The notes under the pieces were generated by a model. It saw nothing but the letters and a program-made list of their open reading frames with translations, was not told where the DNA came from and did no database searches. Both the position numbers and the translations under genes were made by a program. A DNA stretch of 44,820 nucleotides from the sequence record PP627283.1, one strand, 5' to 3'. How positions within the stretch are numbered: the first letter of the stretch is position 1; each line of letters opens with the position of its first letter. This document shows, piece after piece, positions 21,933 to 30,265 of the stretch. Origin of the DNA: Escherichia phage SM_S22.

Positions 21933-23549
21933 ATGGCAGCGGGTACGCTATCCGTAACGAACAATAGCAAGGCGGTAGTAGGGGTCGGCACAACGTTTAC
22001 CGCGTTTAAAGCTGGCGACTTCCTAACGCTGGTGGTAGGGCAAGTCCCCTACACCGTGGCAATCGCATCAATCGAAAGTAACACGGCGCTTACGCTGGTG
22101 TTGCCGTTCGACGGCCCAACGGCAACCGGCCTCGCGTGGGATGGCGTTAAGCGCGATACCATGTCGCTGGCAACGATGGGCGTTACCGTACAGGCGCAAA
22201 AAGCATTGCGCTTGATGATCGCAGATGAAAACAACTGGCGTGCAATCTTCGGCGACGCTGAAGAAATCACAGTGACGTTACCTAACGGGCAGGTTATGCA
22301 GGGCATGTCATGGGGCTATCTGTCGCAGCTAATGAAGCAGATCGACCCTGTGGAGATGCGCAACCTGCAACAACAAGCCGCCGCATCGGAAGCAGCCGCG
22401 CAAGGATTTCGCAATGAGGCCGAAGGCTTCAAGACCGAGACGGCGGGTATTCGCGACGCCACCAATGCCATCAAGACGCAGACCAACCAGATTAAGGCTG
22501 ATACGCAGGCCATCAAGGACCAGACGAACCAGATCAAGACGGATACGCAGGCCATCAAGGACCAGACGAACCAGATCAAGACTGATACTGGCGTTATTCG
22601 AGATCAGGCCAATACCGCGAAGACGGACGCGCAAGCCGCCCGCGATGCCGCGCAGGGGTATCGGGATGAAGCCGAAGACTTCAAAAACGCGATCGACCCT
22701 ACGCAATTCATGAAGAAGTCGCAGAACCTGGCAGACGTCGCCGATAAATCGGCGGCACGCGCTAATCTTGGTTTGGGGTCGGCAGCTACGGAGAACACCG
22801 TTCCGATCGAGAAAGGAGGAACCGCCGCGACGACTGTAGCCGCTGCGCGCACTAATTTCGGGTTGGGCGATAACAATAACGTAAAACTTGGCACGTTGCG
22901 CCTAAACGGGGGTGAATCGCTAGTCTTCAATGATGTCGAAAGAAACGGCTTAGCACTATCCAACGTGTCGTACGGCATTGACAGTTGGGTAGGCTTCACC
23001 ATGCATAAATGGTACGCCGACTGGACACGCGCAGGAATTGTGCGTGCGGGTGACACCCACGTGTCAGACTACCGCATCCACGTGTGGAGAGATGGTATTA
23101 CTGAAGCGCTGTTCCGCTTCCTGCCGGACGGCAGGCTTATTCAGGGTAACAGCAACAACCTTTCCGTAAATGAGTTTCAGAAAGCAGCGCTGTCGGACCG
23201 CGACCTTAAAAAAGAAATCCAATACACTGACGGCGAGGAAAGCTACAACCGCGTTCGTCAATGGCTTCCGGCAATGTTCAAGTATAAGGAGTCTGACGTA
23301 CAGCGATACGGCCTTATCGCGCAGGACCTGGCAAGGATTGACCCGGAATACGTGCATTTGCTGCCGGGTTATGCCATTTATGAGGATATCAAGGGGGTTG
23401 ACGAGGAAGGGAACGAGGTTGTAGTCGACCGCAAGGAGATCGGGTATACCGACGATGTGCTGTGTCTGGACAGTAACGTGCTGTTGATGGACCTGTGTGC
23501 CGCCTTCGTCCACCTGTTGCATAAAGTTGAGAAGCTAGAAGGTAAATAA
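21933..23549 (+). CDS. tail fibre with C-terminal self-cleaving intramolecular chaperone domain
   Basis: 538 aa; tandem repeats IKxQTNQIKxDTQA; C-terminal SDRDLKKEI...YGLIAQDLARIDPEYV resembles Peptidase_S74 chaperone domains of T5 L-shaped fibre and endosialidases. Confidence 0.7.
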   Translation: MAAGTLSVTNNSKAVVGVGTTFTAFKAGDFLTLVVGQVPYTVAIASIESNTALTLVLPFDGPTATGLAWDGVKRDTMSLATMGVTVQAQKALRLMIADENNWRAIFGDAEEITVTLPNGQVMQGMSWGYLSQLMKQIDPVEMRNLQQQAAASEAAAQGFRNEAEGFKTETAGIRDATNAIKTQTNQIKADTQAIKDQTNQIKTDTQAIKDQTNQIKTDTGVIRDQANTAKTDAQAARDAAQGYRDEAEDFKNAIDPTQFMKKSQNLADVADKSAARANLGLGSAATENTVPIEKGGTAATTVAAARTNFGLGDNNNVKLGTLRLNGGESLVFNDVERNGLALSNVSYGIDSWVGFTMHKWYADWTRAGIVRAGDTHVSDYRIHVWRDGITEALFRFLPDGRLIQGNSNNLSVNEFQKAALSDRDLKKEIQYTDGEESYNRVRQWLPAMFKYKESDVQRYGLIAQDLARIDPEYVHLLPGYAIYEDIKGVDEEGNEVVVDRKEIGYTDDVLCLDSNVLLMDLCAAFVHLLHKVEKLEGK

Positions 23550-23556
23550 GGAGAAG

Positions 23557-23580
23557 GGGCCGTGCGGCCCTTTTTTTTTT
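23557..23580 (+). terminator. intrinsic terminator
   Basis: GC hairpin followed by ten T residues. Confidence 0.6.
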
Positions 23581-24154
23581 AGTTTGAGTTCTCCCAGTCC
23601 ATTTTGCGCCGCACCAGCGGGCTTTCGTAGTATTCCTTACCATCCACTTCCACCAGGGGCCAGTCGTTCACTATCACGTATGGCTCCGCAATATCCTCAA
23701 TCACGCCATGCGCGCTATGTTGTCCGAAATCTACGCCCACCAGGATAACCCCGGCAACGCGACGAGTGAGGTACTCGCGAGCGCAACGTGCCTCGACCAG
23801 TCCTCGACGTATGCCGCTGGTGGCCTTAACCTCGTAGGTCCAGACGGCATCGATCACATGCTCGCGGAAGTCGGGACCGGATTTTACCTTGCGCTTGCCG
23901 ACCATGATAATATCGCCTCGGTCGATAGTGTTAGCGCTAAACAGGCCGGTACGCATGAGTAATCCTTGCGGGATACAGCTACGCCCGCCCGCCTGCCCTT
24001 CGAGGTACATACCCGCAAACATCTCACCAAGTACCCCGACAAGACGGCTTTGCTTGCAAGCGTCGGACTTATACCGCCACTGGTCAAACTCGATGCTTGC
24101 TATCATTGCCGCCAGGTGGAATTGTTTACCAGATATTTCATATTCGCCGTACAT
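23579..24154 (-). CDS. hypothetical protein, possible PD-(D/E)XK-type nuclease
   Basis: 191 aa; weak GDIIMVGK...PDF...YEVK pattern; last gene of minus-strand block. Confidence 0.3.
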   Translation of the reverse strand: MYGEYEISGKQFHLAAMIASIEFDQWRYKSDACKQSRLVGVLGEMFAGMYLEGQAGGRSCIPQGLLMRTGLFSANTIDRGDIIMVGKRKVKSGPDFREHVIDAVWTYEVKATSGIRRGLVEARCAREYLTRRVAGVILVGVDFGQHSAHGVIEDIAEPYVIVNDWPLVEVDGKEYYESPLVRRKMDWENSN

Positions 24155-24196
24155 CGTGTGGTCCTCATTGATGCGGGCCGAAGCCCGCGATTAGAA

Positions 24197-24718
24197 TTAT
24201 TTAAGTGCGCCAGTCACCAGTGTTTTTTCCATGTTACGGAAGTCTTCCGGCGTCATAAGGATTTTGGATCCGTCTTCGCCAGTGAGCACGACCATAGGCT
24301 GAACGTCCTGGTCTACGACGCCGAAATTGGCGGCATTAACAGTCTTGCCTGCCGATGACGAAGGATGCCACGTCCCCGCGGTGGCGATGGGCCAACCTTT
24401 AAGGCTGTCGAATTGTGCTGCCGTTGTATCGACCTGAATCTCGTCGTGCACGGTCATGTACGACTCGCCCAGCAGGGCGGAATACGCTACCATGTCGACG
24501 ATATTGTCCTCCTGGTGCTTACGGTGCTGACGAACCAGCTTGAGGCAGATCAGGAAGGTCCAGGCTTCCTGCTCGGTAAGGTCGCGACCGGTAAGCGCGT
24601 TAAACACGGCCGCGATCTGTTTAGCGCTGCGTTCTTCTTTCGCGTTGTCATAGCCGTTTTCTTTTCCGCGCTGTTCCATAGTGGTGGCGGCGTTTTTGCA
24701 GTATTCGTATGCTTTCAC
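24197..24718 (-). CDS. hypothetical protein, possibly MazG-like all-alpha NTP pyrophosphohydrolase; GTG start
   Basis: 173 aa; acidic helix pattern EQEAW...EDNIVDMVAYSALLGE; weak. Confidence 0.3.
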   Translation of the reverse strand: MKAYEYCKNAATTMEQRGKENGYDNAKEERSAKQIAAVFNALTGRDLTEQEAWTFLICLKLVRQHRKHQEDNIVDMVAYSALLGESYMTVHDEIQVDTTAAQFDSLKGWPIATAGTWHPSSSAGKTVNAANFGVVDQDVQPMVVLTGEDGSKILMTPEDFRNMEKTLVTGALK

Positions 24719-24779
24719 GATGTTTTCCTTTTTAGTGGGAGGCGTATTGCCCCGACGCGTTAACTATAGTGCAACCAAC

Positions 24780-25250
24780 CTATTGGTTGCAAGTGAATTT
24801 TGCAACGTTTATCGCGTAAATTTTCGGGACCAAATCACCACACGCCCGACGAATTGCCGCGATGTTCTTCTCGCAATCTTCAATGATGACCAGTTCCGAC
24901 ACGTCCGCATAGCAGACCATTTTGAACACGGCGCACGCCTTAAACTCAGGCGGCGGGGTGTCGTCCTGCATGTGGCGCATAAACAACCGGCCTACCGGGA
25001 AGACCTCCAATTGCCTGGCGGTGGTGTCCCAGCATTCTCGCTGCCGGTTGGTCAGATACGCGATCTCGAAGCCTTGCTCTTTATACATGCTCAACAGCGG
25101 CAGCATATCCATGTTAAGGTCTTCGCGTACGTGCGCTTTGTGCCACTTCGCCCAAAATGTTGATTTGGTTTTTATCCCCGGCACCAGGTCGGCACGCGCA
25201 TCACTTGACCCGTTAATAACGCCATCCAAATCGCAAATCAGTAATTTCAT
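24780..25250 (-). CDS. HAD-superfamily phosphatase (nucleotidase / PNK-phosphatase-like)
   Basis: 156 aa; HAD motif I LICDLDGVI at N-terminus. Confidence 0.5.
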   Translation of the reverse strand: MKLLICDLDGVINGSSDARADLVPGIKTKSTFWAKWHKAHVREDLNMDMLPLLSMYKEQGFEIAYLTNRQRECWDTTARQLEVFPVGRLFMRHMQDDTPPPEFKACAVFKMVCYADVSELVIIEDCEKNIAAIRRACGDLVPKIYAINVAKFTCNQ

Positions 25251-25471
25251 TTCAATTCCTCAATCAGATTTTCACGAACAATACGGGCGGAAAACGTGCC
25301 ACACACAAGATGGCAGCGGGCAGTCATTACAAGCCAGCCGGTAAGGTCCAGGCCGAGCAATTGCTCCGGGCGGCTGACCCGCCGCACTTTGTTCTCCCTC
25401 GGGTTAATTTGGTAGCGTTTAACAATTTCGTCCACGACGCGCGGACTGCGATCAACGACTAAGATATTCAA
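25247..25471 (-). CDS. hypothetical protein
   Basis: 74 aa, overlaps neighbours. Confidence 0.3.
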   Translation of the reverse strand: MNILVVDRSPRVVDEIVKRYQINPRENKVRRVSRPEQLLGLDLTGWLVMTARCHLVCGTFSARIVRENLIEELK

Positions 25472-25937
25472 GGAGTTCTCCTTCGCTCATTATTTCAATT
25501 CGTGCGCTGCCGCTGGGCGGCGCTTCGTCAAAGATTATCAATTGCTGGCATTTGTTATTGCTCGGCCCGACTTCACCGGTGACAGCGTGAATGAATCTAA
25601 TCCGCCAGTCCAGAAGAATTATCAGGTTTGCAGTCTTCCGGGCCAGCTTCGCCCACTTCGTCGACGTGTCCTGATTCAGTAGCATGACCGTCCGGCGTCC
25701 GTGCGCTGCGCACTCCACCCACGGCAGCGGATCGGAATACGGCGGATTGCACCACTTCCACCCTTTCAACTCCGCCCAGTCCGCATCAAGCGCGCTATGT
25801 TCTGCCGTGAAGTAACGCGGTAGCAGATGGTTGGCGTCGCTTGCCGCCATATCGTAACGGAATCGGAACTTACGGCGCAGCGGTTTAAATAAAGCTGGCG
25901 GCGTGCGCCAGCTATCTTTTTGCTCACTCTTCTGCAT
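25452..25937 (-). CDS. DNA N6-adenine methyltransferase (phage Dam family)
   Basis: 161 aa; WRTPP near N-terminus and NPPY motif (WCNPPYS). Confidence 0.65.
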   Translation of the reverse strand: MQKSEQKDSWRTPPALFKPLRRKFRFRYDMAASDANHLLPRYFTAEHSALDADWAELKGWKWCNPPYSDPLPWVECAAHGRRTVMLLNQDTSTKWAKLARKTANLIILLDWRIRFIHAVTGEVGPSNNKCQQLIIFDEAPPSGSARIEIMSEGELLEYLSR

Positions 25938-26388
25938 GGTCGGTGTCTATCGCATAAAGTGGAGTCTTACCACCTTTATTGATGACGCGTGCAACGCGCT
26001 TTGATTCCTCAGCACTAAGCGGGCGCTCGTCTGGGTAGAAGCTGCCGTTTGTAGGGTTGCGCCACGCCATAAGCACAAGGTCTTTCCGGGCGATCGAAGA
26101 CTGGCGGCCCTTCGGACGCACGTACTCCTCGGCCCGTTTGCAATGCTCACGCAGCCCGTCGGCAGTGATGCGGTTTAGCGCGACGGTGGTTGTGTACCCG
26201 GTGCGCTGCATAATACCCATCAACTCATACAGCAGATCGAAGCGCTCCTCTAATTCCTTGCGCGCCTTCTCCTCGCCTTCATAGCTCGCCAGGTAGGTGT
26301 CTGCCAGCGCGCTAACACGTTCGGCATGTTCGCGGGCTTCGAGGCATTGTGCGGCCCAGTAATCTTTTTCTTCTTGTAAAATTTTCAT
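25924..26388 (-). CDS. hypothetical protein
   Basis: 154 aa, helical/charged. Confidence 0.35.
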   Translation of the reverse strand: MKILQEEKDYWAAQCLEAREHAERVSALADTYLASYEGEEKARKELEERFDLLYELMGIMQRTGYTTTVALNRITADGLREHCKRAEEYVRPKGRQSSIARKDLVLMAWRNPTNGSFYPDERPLSAEESKRVARVINKGGKTPLYAIDTDHAEE

Positions 26389-26443
26389 CGTGTTGTCTCC
26401 GGGGTATTAAAAAGGGCGTCCAAACCGGACACCCTCAATATAA

Positions 26444-26470
26444 TGCAACCAATATGATTGTGCAACCAAT
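26444..26470 (-). promoter_or_regulatory. internal sigma70-like promoter with TGCAACCAAT pair
   Basis: Minus-strand read TTGCAC-17-TATATT; two TGCAACCAAT copies (26444-26453, 26461-26470). Confidence 0.4.
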
Positions 26471-26794
26471 TTACGCATAAAAGTTAGGGTTGCGTGCAAC
26501 GTCTACCAGGTAAAGGTTGCTCATGCGGTTGCCGTAGTGCCCTGGAGTGCGCTGGCGGCACACAACGGCGAAGCCTGGTGGAATTGTATTGCCCGTCTCA
26601 ATAATCCACGCCACGCGTGCTCCTGACAGCGTTTTGCCGTTGTATTCGATGCGTGTTCCGCCATCGGCAGTGTTAAGGTTACCAATCTTGCAGCCTGTGG
26701 ACTTCAGGCGGATGACGCCGGTCTTACTGTCGTAGGAAAAAAGCTGATTGGTCATTGCCACTGAAAAGTCGATGGCGTCGAATGTAGTATTCAT
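26471..26794 (-). CDS. HNH_3/AP2-like domain protein (possibly degenerate HNH)
   Basis: 107 aa; YDSKTGVIR...GGTRIEYNGKTLSGARVAWIIETG...SNL pattern. Confidence 0.35.
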   Translation of the reverse strand: MNTTFDAIDFSVAMTNQLFSYDSKTGVIRLKSTGCKIGNLNTADGGTRIEYNGKTLSGARVAWIIETGNTIPPGFAVVCRQRTPGHYGNRMSNLYLVDVARNPNFYA

Positions 26795-27486
26795 TTTAAA
26801 TTTTCCTCGTTAACCGCTATCGCGAAGCCGCGCGGGGTGAGTGAGCGGATTAATTTTGTACGAGCGGATTTACCACCGAGGCGACTATACTGTTTCGAGT
26901 ACCCTTTTTCAACGAAAACAGGTTTCTTCCCGGGCATACGGAAGCCGTTGCCGGTCCATAAGCAGGTCAGCTTCGGGTATGAATCGCGGGCGTTGATGTA
27001 TTCCGGGAAGAGTGGGTGTACGTCATCCTCCGGCAGATATCCCCCATACTCCCACGGGTCAAACGAGTGGTCCGGCTTACGCCATTGAGTGGCGAGCACG
27101 CTGCGCGGATTCTCAATCATATATGGCACTTCGAAGAAGTCACCCAGGTAAGCTGCGATCTTCGCGGTGCGCACCGCCTTAAGCTGGAAGGCCGGGTCGC
27201 GGGCGCGTTTGCGCGGGAAAGCTGGCGCACCGCTCACCGCCAGATCAGTACACGGCGGGAATGCGTAGATTATGTCCGGCGTACCGAAATCGCCATTCAT
27301 CGCGCGGTCTACAAAGTCCAGATCAATAAACTCATTGCGATATCGGATCCCGCGCCCATAAATCCGGTAATCAAGGTATGACCCGTGATCGGCTTCGGAG
27401 TAGTTGAAGCAATAACACTTATGCCCCATCTCGGCAGCACGCTCAATCATCAAGCCGCTGCCGTCAAATAATGACCAGATAATCAT
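26791..27486 (-). CDS. short C5-cytosine methyltransferase-like protein (catalytic core only)
   Basis: 231 aa; motif I FDGSG, motif IV FPPCTDLAVSG, motif VI ENP, motif VIII-like QWRK; no room for a target-recognition domain. Confidence 0.5.
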   Translation of the reverse strand: MIIWSLFDGSGLMIERAAEMGHKCYCFNYSEADHGSYLDYRIYGRGIRYRNEFIDLDFVDRAMNGDFGTPDIIYAFPPCTDLAVSGAPAFPRKRARDPAFQLKAVRTAKIAAYLGDFFEVPYMIENPRSVLATQWRKPDHSFDPWEYGGYLPEDDVHPLFPEYINARDSYPKLTCLWTGNGFRMPGKKPVFVEKGYSKQYSRLGGKSARTKLIRSLTPRGFAIAVNEENLK

Positions 27487-28907
27487 TTGCGCGCCTTTTT
27501 AGCTTTCATGTATTCCATCAAGTCGTCCTGAATATCCCGCTTGCTGTCGCGACGTTCGGCGACCAGTTCATCCAGTGTGCCGCGCGCCTGGATAATGTAG
27601 ACGAATACTGGACGAGGGTGCCCAGCTTGCATCTGGCGGACAGGCCCGATACGCTCCACGATCTGCGCAAAGTGCTCATAGTTCCAGGTATCGGAGAAGA
27701 TTGCCAGGTGATGTCCGCCGTCCTGCAAGTTAAGGCCGTGACCCGCCGATGCCGGGTGCGCAAACATGATGGGTATCTCGCCTCTGTTCCACGCCTCCAT
27801 ATCCTTATTCCCTTGCTTACCTTTACCCAACGCAACGCCGTGCGGAAATTTCTTCTTAAGACGTGCCAGGTCATGCTTATACTGATACGCAACGAGCAAC
27901 GGCGCGCCGTTCAACTCCTCCACGATACTTTCCAGCGCGTCCAGCTTCGCGTCGTGAATCTTCACCCACTCGTCGGTCCGTTCGCCGTCTTCGTCCACCT
28001 TATACACGGCCCCGGACGCAAGCTGAAGGCACTTAATTGTCTTCGATGCCGCGTTCGCCGCCTCCACTGTTCCGCTTTCCAGTTCGGCAAATAGCTCACT
28101 TTCAAACTGGTCGTAAATCTTGCGGGCTTTTTTCGGCAGGTCCACAACAACCGGCGTATAGATTGGCTTGTCACACCCGAAGTATTCAGCCGCATCAACG
28201 GTGAGCGACACGTCGGACAGGCGTTGTTGTATTTCTTTCTCGGAGTTCTTAAGCGGGGCGTGCTGCATCGTGAAGCTGCCAGGCTTAACAGGCTTGCTAA
28301 TAAACCAGCGGTCCGTGAACGCCTTATAGCTACTGCCGAGACGTTCGCCGCCGTCGACAAACCACGTCTGTCCCCACAGGTCTTTCAGCCCGTTTGGTGC
28401 GGGTGTGCCGGTAAGGTTAATCCAGCGCTTGACGTGCTTATGTGCAATCGCTGCCAGTGCGCGGGCGCGCTTGCTCCCCTGCTTGCTACGATATCCTTTC
28501 AGCTTAGTCGATTCATCGGCAACAACGACCGTAAAGGGCCACGCATCGCCGTAATAGTCGACCAGCCACTCAACAACATCGTAGTTAACACAAACCACGT
28601 TAGCGTCGCTCTCCAGCGCCGCAATACGGTCCTTCTCCGGCCCGGTGCCGTCTACGACCAGCAGGGATGAGAACCGCCATTTCTCCTGTTCCGGGGGCCA
28701 GGTGCCGGATGCAACGCGCAGCGGGGCCAGCACCAGTACGCGGTCCTCCTGGTTCGACAGGATGCCAGTCTGGAACATTTTATTCAGCGCCCACATTGTC
28801 GCGCCGGTTTTACCGGATCCCATTGTCGCCCATATATTACATCGCTTATGCTTGAGGATGAACGCGGTTATCAACTTCTGATATTCGCGGCGTCGGAATC
28901 TTTCCAT
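27483..28907 (-). CDS. SNF2/DEAD-like superfamily II helicase
   Basis: About 474 aa from ATG 28907; motif I GSGKTG, motif II VVADESTKL, C-terminal helicase motifs. Confidence 0.7.
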   Translation of the reverse strand: MERFRRREYQKLITAFILKHKRCNIWATMGSGKTGATMWALNKMFQTGILSNQEDRVLVLAPLRVASGTWPPEQEKWRFSSLLVVDGTGPEKDRIAALESDANVVCVNYDVVEWLVDYYGDAWPFTVVVADESTKLKGYRSKQGSKRARALAAIAHKHVKRWINLTGTPAPNGLKDLWGQTWFVDGGERLGSSYKAFTDRWFISKPVKPGSFTMQHAPLKNSEKEIQQRLSDVSLTVDAAEYFGCDKPIYTPVVVDLPKKARKIYDQFESELFAELESGTVEAANAASKTIKCLQLASGAVYKVDEDGERTDEWVKIHDAKLDALESIVEELNGAPLLVAYQYKHDLARLKKKFPHGVALGKGKQGNKDMEAWNRGEIPIMFAHPASAGHGLNLQDGGHHLAIFSDTWNYEHFAQIVERIGPVRQMQAGHPRPVFVYIIQARGTLDELVAERRDSKRDIQDDLMEYMKAKKARK

Positions 28908-28911
28908 GTCT

Positions 28912-29130
28912 TTATTCCGCCTTTTTCCAGACTTCGGTTTCACTGTTCCAGTTCCTTTTTGTAGCGTCGTAGTTGGTGGCGTGTCCGATGTGCACACCGG
29001 TAGCCCGGAAGCTCTTAAATTTTTGCCAGCACACCGTCAACGGCAGCGGATCATTCATGCCCGCGATAAACCATACGCGATCTCCCGGTTTACATTCGCC
29101 CAGCTTGGTGAGTCGGTAATGTTCTTTCAT
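28912..29130 (-). CDS. hypothetical protein
   Basis: About 72 aa; GGGAGA RBS; preceded by terminator-like hairpin 29150-29166. Confidence 0.3.
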   Translation of the reverse strand: MKEHYRLTKLGECKPGDRVWFIAGMNDPLPLTVCWQKFKSFRATGVHIGHATNYDATKRNWNSETEVWKKAE

Positions 29131-29387: not shown

Positions 29388-29666
29388 CTATGCGACCAAT
29401 TCAGCAACCAATAAATCGCAGTCGGATATGTTGTCGATAACGCGAACGTCAGCACCGCGGCGGGCCATTCGCTCATGTTCACGTACCTGGTGCGGCTTCG
29501 GTTTTCCTCCGGGGCGCTTCACTTCGACGAACACTATTTTGCCGTTGATGATAATAATCAGGTCGGGCGCACCCGCGCGCCCCTCCCATGCCAGTTTTCG
29601 GCAGAATCCTCCGACCTCTTTCACCCGTTTCATCAGGTGACGCTGCACCTTGCCTTCTGGTGTCAT
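29388..29666 (-). CDS. VRR-NUC domain nuclease
   Basis: About 92 aa; APDLIIIINGKIVFVEVKRPGGKPKPHQ. Confidence 0.55.
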   Translation of the reverse strand: MTPEGKVQRHLMKRVKEVGGFCRKLAWEGRAGAPDLIIIINGKIVFVEVKRPGGKPKPHQVREHERMARRGADVRVIDNISDCDLLVAELVA

Positions 29667-30265
29667 TGTCGGCTTTTCCTTACGGCAGCGATGGCCGGTC
29701 CGATAAACTTCTTCATTTCGTCCGGGGTAAACCGGTCCCCGCGGGCTATGTTGCACTCTACGCAGCACGGCACGCAGTTATCTTTCGTATGACCTACCGT
29801 GTTGTCGAGTCGGTCCGCGCCATTGTCCCCGGAGAACCCGCAGTATGCGCACGGCTGAGAAGTAAGGCGCAGCACGTCCTCTGTAGTAAGGTCGGTGTTT
29901 ATCCCCTTCCTTTCGTCTGCCTTACGGTACTGAAAGAGTTTATAGTAAGCGCGGATCTCTGGTGTCCGGTGGTTGTACTCACGGCGTGACTTATTAGCGC
30001 ACGATCGGCATTCTTTACGGATATGTGACCCGTTTGCCTGGCTTCCGGGCCGGAAGTTTTCCGGCGTGAGCGGCTTGCGCTCTCCGCACGTACGACATGT
30101 TACGATCTCCCCGGTGTACTCTCGCCATACTTCTCTCGGCGGCGCGCCTCTTTCCTTATCACGTCTCTCTTTCTTATATGCCGCCATGCATTTGGCGCAC
30201 CACGACTGGCCCTTGTTGAAAGCGGACTCATCTTTACCCGTATTACAACGCCCACAATGTTTCAT
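29663..30265 (-). CDS. HNH endonuclease with N-terminal zinc fingers
   Basis: Several CxxC pairs; C-terminal HNH core CAYCGF...DNTVGHTKDNCVPCCVECN. Confidence 0.6.
   Translation of the reverse strand: MKHCGRCNTGKDESAFNKGQSWCAKCMAAYKKERRDKERGAPPREVWREYTGEIVTCRTCGERKPLTPENFRPGSQANGSHIRKECRSCANKSRREYNHRTPEIRAYYKLFQYRKADERKGINTDLTTEDVLRLTSQPCAYCGFSGDNGADRLDNTVGHTKDNCVPCCVECNIARGDRFTPDEMKKFIGPAIAAVRKSRQ

Follow-up and report, generated by a model that had tools for sequence, protein, structure and literature searches.

A probable stand-alone cytosine-5 DNA methyltransferase of a common compact phage family in Escherichia phage SM_S22

The best-described relative of the protein considered here is the Dcm enzyme of phage K42, encoded by a 711-bp gene that Wang et al. 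studied in a genome 95% identical to that of phage KarlJaspers (bioRxiv 10.1101/2023.08.16.553469). In that work, phages that escaped retron Ec86 had lost or silenced dcm, and K42 dcm expressed alone from pBAD was toxic only to cells carrying Ec86. Mass spectrometry coupled to liquid chromatography (LC-MS) against a standard detected high levels of 5-methylcytosine (5mC) on the multicopy single-stranded DNA (msDNA) of Ec86 in the presence of wild-type K42 Dcm, and no such msDNA 5mC with the C82A/E128A/K175A/K176A mutant. Ec86 defence was lost when the CCTGG site of the msDNA stem was altered. The authors modelled K42 Dcm on DNMT3A, and a Dcm of this kind is encoded by 34 of 35 Ec86-sensitive phages (bioRxiv 10.1101/2023.08.16.553469). 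Here we describe a homolog from Escherichia phage SM_S22 (PP627283.1), a 231-amino acid (aa) protein encoded on the minus strand at positions 26791..27486 of the window, by which we mean the whole stretch of 44,820 nucleotides (nt) that was analyzed. The gene belongs to a cluster of eight minus-strand open reading frames (ORFs), which a first, sequence-only reading had regarded as a candidate DNA-modification and nucleotide-metabolism module built around an atypical, uncharacterised cytosine-5 methyltransferase (C5-MTase).

KarlJaspers (Bas06, Drexlerviridae) carries a 711-bp homolog, bas06_0055 (QXV82308.1), annotated as a 'Dcm-like C5 cytosine methyltransferase'. Its product is 53% identical to the window protein over the full length (E 8e-86) and of similar size (236 versus 231 aa), and the catalytic Cys, the Glu of the ENP motif and a conserved Lys are identically spaced in the two. 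The K42 residues C82, E128, K175 and K176 align to C79, E125, K172 and L173 of the window protein, so that three of the four are identical. The same DNMT3A-like fold is predicted for the KarlJaspers/K42 protein and for the window protein, and in both phages the gene lies in the early/replication region, close to a helicase gene. Given the K42 data, together with the aligned active-site residues and their identical spacing, the family can be regarded as experimentally supported stand-alone 5mC methyltransferases. We consider it very likely that the 231-aa protein is itself a stand-alone DNA cytosine-5 methyltransferase of this compact phage family, dependent on S-adenosylmethionine (AdoMet). 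The fold and the catalytic residues are established here; the chemistry and the stand-alone activity would carry over from the ortholog, since activity was shown for the K42 enzyme whereas the window protein is known here from its sequence and model.

The catalytic motifs agree with this assignment. Motifs I, IV and VI had been correctly recognized in the sequence-only reading, and all three are invariant in an alignment of 32 relatives. Motif I (F7-D-G-S-G11) and motif IV (P78-C79, within FPPC and present in 32/32 close relatives) align with the corresponding motif I and PC of HaeIII and HhaI, and motif VI is E125-N-P. Two further stretches, WR and LGGKSxxTKxIRSLTPRG, are also invariant in the same alignment. 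Conservation extends to a more distant set of 116 family representatives (median 40% identity to the window protein), in which Cys79 is kept in 108, Glu125 in 113, Arg136 in 102 and Lys172 in 108; the catalytic Cys and Glu are thus retained in a family whose divergence reaches 30-55% identity. Motif VI is followed by a conserved, possibly motif VIII-like W135-R136-K137, with the Arg present in 102/116. The C-terminal R214-S-L-T-P-R-G-F-A-x-A-V resembles motifs IX/X and is part of the polypeptide that bears the catalytic motifs. As a separate observation, residue 28, which follows strand beta-2 in the region of motif II, is Asn in members of the Dhillonvirus/Drexlerviridae clade, the active K42 type among them, and Asp in 103 of the 116 more distant representatives.

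The family is also far from rare. Against PHROGs, residues 1-229 of the protein match phrog_757 'DNA methyltransferase' at E 5.9e-81, and GenBank records of close relatives bear the label 'DNA cytosine methyltransferase C5', a C5 or Dcm-like methylase being annotated in many Dhillonvirus records. A homolog search returned 2,816 clusters at 90% identity and 1,952 representatives at 50% identity, nearly all of 210-260 aa. Members are present in 1,510 of 50,697 phage records, mostly from phages of Escherichia (575), Klebsiella (521) and Salmonella (107), with others from Shigella, Campylobacter, Vibrio, Arthrobacter and cyanophage. The carriers include Drexlerviridae, Salmonella phage 9NA, and myovirus-sized genomes of 137-168 kb from Escherichia, Salmonella and Klebsiella phages. 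Ten longer members (294-453 aa) were scanned with Pfam for informative fusions and none was found. A precomputed PF00145 match was present for 3 of 120 relatives among the matches listed, a PADLOC scan of the 231-aa protein gave no match, and sequence and profile searches of the PDB with it gave just an insignificant match to HaeIII (E 0.53). The description of the enzyme as atypical and uncharacterised does not hold, therefore, as it belongs to a very common, annotated phage family with an active ortholog at 53% identity. This is among the commonest phage methyltransferase families, and it is already known. The sequence-only reading was thus accurate in its observation and partly right in its interpretation, and the finding is correct but ordinary.

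The predicted structure agrees with the motifs. An AlphaFold2 model of the 231-aa protein, built from the alignment of relatives, had a predicted local distance difference test score (pLDDT) of 91.1 and a predicted template modelling score (pTM) of 0.90. It falls in the class I AdoMet-methyltransferase Rossmann fold with C5-MTase topology. The top Foldseek matches in the PDB, at E about 1e-6 and a probability of 1.0, were the catalytic domains of DNMT3A/3B; a C5 methylase from a prophage (3g7u) came next, and DNMT3 and bacterial DNA methylases scored above Dnmt2. The remark that the protein has no space for a target-recognition domain (TRD) was also right: the family is uniformly 210-260 aa long and its top structural matches have a very small TRD. 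The gap of about 70 residues between W135-R136 and R214-S-L-T-P is highly conserved rather than variable, and holds no large variable TRD. From the sequence motifs and the confident model and Foldseek matches, the 231-aa protein can be described as a C5-MTase core with a vestigial recognition region; its predicted membership of the C5-cytosine methyltransferase fold, with minimal recognition region, is confirmed at the level of the model.

Several observations weigh against this assignment or against the target proposed for the enzyme. No Pfam match was obtained for the 231-aa protein even at E up to 10, PF00145 included, nor any NCBIfam match. When the family profile was compared with M.HhaI by hhalign, motifs I-IV alone aligned, and weakly, at E 0.005 and a probability of 6.7%, which we take as no more than a lead. 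The counterpart of K42 K176 is Leu173 in the window protein, at a position that is Lys or Arg in 70/116 relatives. The CCWGG specificity of K42 Dcm was assumed by analogy with host Dcm, with the CCTGG-site mutation as its sole support (bioRxiv 10.1101/2023.08.16.553469). The SM_S22 genome contains 152 CCWGG sites where 162 are expected, so that they are neither avoided nor enriched, and with the count at expectation there is no independent sign of selection at CCWGG. Counts of CCWGG and other sites in the genome likewise pointed to no target, none being avoided or enriched. Finally, according to the BASEL study, the presence of methylase genes is not linked in any simple way to resistance to restriction.

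If the protein acts by the standard C5-MTase mechanism, Cys79 of the Pro-Cys motif would attack C6 of a flipped-out cytosine, Glu125 of ENP would protonate N3, and the methyl group would be transferred to C5. A short conserved segment (about residues 136-207) may stand in for a large TRD, as in DNMT3A/3B. Because this recognition segment is so short, the enzyme, possibly a dimer, probably reads a short site through catalytic-domain loops. It would be expressed early, like the replication genes and the adenine methylase of Dam type, and would methylate phage DNA, with host DNA and retron msDNA as incidental substrates. A shield against cytosine-sensitive restriction would be the likely benefit, the proposed target being CCWGG, while the orphan Dam encoded alongside would presumably blunt adenine-sensitive restriction of the replicating phage DNA. 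The same methylase activity could be a liability, as the signal sensed by retron Ec86/Eco1.

We also considered whether the enzyme depends on its neighbors. The 231-aa gene overlaps by 4 nt the start of a gene for a 107-aa protein (26471..26794, minus strand), and the sequence-only reading had raised the idea of a split enzyme of the M.AquI type, in which the 231-aa core needs the 107-aa HNH_3/AP2-like protein as its DNA-recognition subunit. Besides the overlap, such an arrangement would fit the kinship of the 107-aa protein with the DNA-binding HNH_3 homing endonucleases and the near lack of a TRD in the methylase. We therefore turn to 80 IMG/VR loci with a family member (14 Dhillonvirus-like and 66 other), which were searched with all of the cluster proteins over flanks of up to 8 kb per side. 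In these flanks the 107-aa gene accompanies the methylase in 14/14 of the Dhillonvirus-like loci and in just 1/66 of the others, itself a more distant Dhillonvirus-like contig. The methylases of KarlJaspers and tiwna adjoin unrelated small genes, the K42 ortholog is active on its own, and the motif IX/X-like sequence shares a chain with the catalytic motifs. Since it is not co-conserved, since the K42 enzyme works alone and since the IX/X-like motif is not on a separate chain, the 107-aa protein does not appear to be an obligate partner or subunit, and a split enzyme is very improbable. The same loci bear on the broader proposal of a coordinated modification and nucleotide-metabolism module. 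A C5-MTase with minimal recognition region does lie beside a Dam methylase and a HAD phosphatase, as had been noted, but the module itself is not supported, because most of the cluster does not accompany the methylase outside Dhillonvirus: the HAD gene was found in 13/14 Dhillonvirus-like and 1/66 other loci, the 74-aa gene in 13/14 and 1/66, the 191-aa gene in 14/14 and 1/66, and the 154-aa gene in 13/14 and 0/66. Among these genes just the Dam homolog (14/14 and 36/66, in the latter often about 7 kb off and on the opposite strand) and the DUF6378 gene (14/14 and 12/66) recur.

These counts also bear on the idea of a hypermodification or nucleotide-pool system, in which the C5-MTase-like enzyme would install a group other than methyl (for example carboxymethyl from carboxy-S-adenosylmethionine, Cx-SAM) or would have nucleotides as its substrates, and the HAD and DUF6378 proteins would process the precursors. 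The HAD gene is unlinked to the methylase beyond Dhillonvirus, as are the 154-aa, 74-aa and 191-aa genes, and DUF6378 is matched by no hidden Markov model (HMM) for MazG or another nucleotide enzyme. The product of the ortholog was identified as 5mC by LC-MS against a standard. Moreover, the BASEL study found Dhillonvirus to be sensitive to restriction-modification (RM) systems of types I to III, unlike the hypermodified Queuovirinae. We hold this explanation to be highly unlikely. A role other than DNA methylation in vivo, whether as a Dnmt2-like C5 methylase of RNA or tRNA or as a binding protein with a dead active site, would be hard to reconcile with the strong conservation of the catalytic Cys, Glu and Arg, with methylation of msDNA in vivo by the ortholog and the inertness of its active-site mutant, and with structural scores that place Dnmt2 below DNMT3 and the bacterial DNA methylases; we give it very little credence. 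A stand-alone DNA methyltransferase remains our preferred reading, and in all likelihood the HNH-like, HAD, DUF6378 and remaining ORFs are lineage-specific early genes and not methylase subunits.

The survey gave two further observations on gene order. An SNF2-like helicase gene, placed before or after the methylase, was found in 14/14 Dhillonvirus-like loci and in 12/66 of the others; a helicase of this type adjoins the compact methylase in several lineages, in the order helicase then methylase in the window and methylase then helicase elsewhere (loci L026-L052). In lambdoid prophage-like contigs (L079:6635-9699; also L065, L078 and L080-L087), the nin-type region carries a Dam-DUF6378-methylase set, which in L079 begins with Dam (183 aa) and continues with a 112-aa protein made up of DUF6378 alone, a membrane protein of 167 aa, the compact C5 methylase (254 aa), a NinG-like and a RusA-like protein. 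By this nin-region order, a second lineage, unrelated to the first, also has DUF6378 beside Dam and the methylase. A bolder proposal, which we rate as unlikely though less so than the alternatives above, is that in the compact family the TRD is replaced by catalytic-domain loops together with a dimer interface like that of DNMT3, an arrangement undescribed for prokaryotic C5-MTases, and that the target is shorter than or unlike CCWGG, perhaps including hairpin or single-stranded substrates of the msDNA type; in that case, the repeated occurrence of Dam, DUF6378 and the methylase side by side would hint that DUF6378 has an unrecognised accessory role. A literature search on TRD-less C5 enzymes and on phage 5mC methylomes returned nothing specific.

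The other genes of the cluster vary in how far they can be named. For the 107-aa protein, the earlier HNH_3-like call stands in PHROGs, where phrog_99 'HNH endonuclease' is matched at 2.4e-16, but not in Pfam, where HNH_3 reaches just E 0.27. The phrog_99 match is partial and spans profile positions 108-201 of 383. The catalytic histidines appear, from the sequence, to be substituted, and some relatives have an extra insertion of 240-650 bp at the position of this gene. Because of the mid-profile match and the apparent loss of catalytic histidines, the protein may be a decayed homing endonuclease, and it is probably a degenerate or truncated remnant of one.

The Dam-family N6-adenine DNA methyltransferase (161 aa, 25452..25937, minus strand) was correctly called. 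It matches PF05869 at E 6.6e-36 (124 bits versus a cut-off of 28.1), phrog_111 at 2.6e-55 and the PADLOC orphan MTase model at 1.4e-10, and its NPPY motif appears in the translation as CNPPYS; against TIGR01712 it scores 87 bits, under the equivalog cut-off of 97. The putative HAD-superfamily phosphatase (156 aa, 24780..25250, minus strand) is supported by a DLDGV motif at residues 7-11 and by phrog_415 at 3.8e-35, with Pfam and NCBIfam HAD models under their cut-offs. Its Pfam scores, both below cut-off, are 1.1e-4 for Acid_phosphat_B and 0.07 for HAD_PNKP, and by sequence the protein seems to resemble the phosphatase domain of polynucleotide kinase-phosphatases and 5'-nucleotidases. The suggestion of a MazG-like pyrophosphohydrolase for the 173-aa protein (24197..24718, minus strand) found no backing, as DUF6378 (PF19905, 2e-9) is its sole Pfam match and it has no relative in NCBIfam or the PDB. 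DUF6378 occupies the first ~90 residues, the C-terminal half being variable in the alignment, and the PHROGs matches are phrog_9871 and phrog_474. The AlphaFold2 model of this protein is poor (pLDDT 50.7), although four helices are predicted within residues 3-90, and for DUF6378 a PDB profile search and a literature search were both empty and gave no link to MazG.

Three proteins of the cluster lack a recognized domain. The 191-aa protein (23579..24154, minus strand) is restricted to Dhillonvirus, with just 7 clusters in 5.8 billion proteins, and has no Pfam, PDB or PADLOC match. Residues E44, D81, D102 and E108-x-K110 are invariant in 6 sequences, and the E44/D81/E108-x-K110 pattern is compatible, at the level of motifs, with a possible PD-(D/E)XK nuclease. 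A study of retron-Eco7 reported escape mutations in a Dhillonvirus gene of unknown function (PMC12640716), which might be the 191-aa gene. The 154-aa protein (25924..26388, minus strand) matches phrog_10530 at 1.1e-92 and is labelled 'DNA ligase' in that phrog and in GenBank records (SO-1, NHEP3, BMA1). It has no match, ligase or other, in Pfam, NCBIfam or PADLOC and, for want of any domain match, the label is probably a propagated annotation error. The 74-aa protein (25247..25471, minus strand) matches phrog_10685 at 4.7e-46 and nothing else in Pfam, PHROGs or NCBIfam.

The window as a whole is a complete Dhillonvirus genome of 44.8 kb that opens with the small terminase gene, and all eight minus-strand ORFs listed by the sequence-only reading were found at the positions given here. 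The 3.9-kb cluster region of SM_S22 is ~91% identical in nucleotide sequence to many Dhillonvirus genomes, its relatives including Escherichia phages Pandora71, HK1, YD-2008.s and mckay and Sodalis phage SO-1, and at least 80% of it is spanned by one match in each of 143 records. A long block of minus-strand genes, which also encodes a DNA polymerase, a primase/helicase, a VRR-NUC protein and the SNF2 helicase, has the cluster at its distal end. The SNF2-family helicase gene (27483..28997, minus strand; PF00176 at 9e-11) lies directly upstream, its stop overlapping the start of the 231-aa gene by 4 nt, and the VRR-NUC domain gene (29388..29768, minus strand; PF08774 at 1.2e-5) lies upstream of the helicase. 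Small ORFs near the VRR-NUC gene have Lar-like restriction-alleviation labels in related records, without Pfam support in the window. A scan for promoters and terminators gave weak consensus matches only. The cluster terminates convergently, facing the tail-fibre gene (21933-23549, plus strand), which contains a run of near-identical short repeats at 22400-22700 (…IKTQTNQIKADTQAIKDQTNQIKTDTQAIKDQTNQIKTDTGVIRDQ…).

The main gain from this analysis is in annotation, since a gene missed by Pfam and NCBIfam can confidently be given the name of a Dcm-like C5-cytosine methyltransferase. A further outcome is the prediction that this Dhillonvirus, SM_S22, will be sensed by retron Ec86/Eco1. Sensing by Ec86 bears on the choice of therapeutic phages and of production strains, as BL21 carries Ec86.

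Finally, the compact enzyme can be placed among the C5-MTases already described. Canonical type II C5-MTases (M.HhaI, M.HaeIII and E. coli Dcm; PF00145) have a large TRD between motifs VIII and IX that is absent from the window protein and, unlike them, the window protein has no cognate endonuclease. It is ~100 residues shorter than M.HhaI (327 aa), and E. coli Dcm, at 472 aa, is ~240 residues longer than the window protein. M.AquI is a two-subunit C5 methyltransferase, and the window protein shares with it the trait of a short polypeptide bearing the N-terminal catalytic motifs; however, unlike the M.AquI type, it carries motifs I to IX/X-like on one chain and has no co-conserved second subunit. 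Its closest structural matches, the DNMT3A and DNMT3B catalytic domains (for example PDB 6u8p and 6f57), share 13-16% sequence identity with the phage protein, and the DNMT3 enzymes differ in their DNMT3L-containing tetramers, N-terminal chromatin-reading domains and CpG recognition. The nearest described counterpart is the KarlJaspers/K42 protein, although the lineages differ (Dhillonvirus for the window, Drexlerviridae/Hanrivervirus for KarlJaspers), as do the flanking genes, with KarlJaspers lacking the HNH-like gene that adjoins the methylase in SM_S22.

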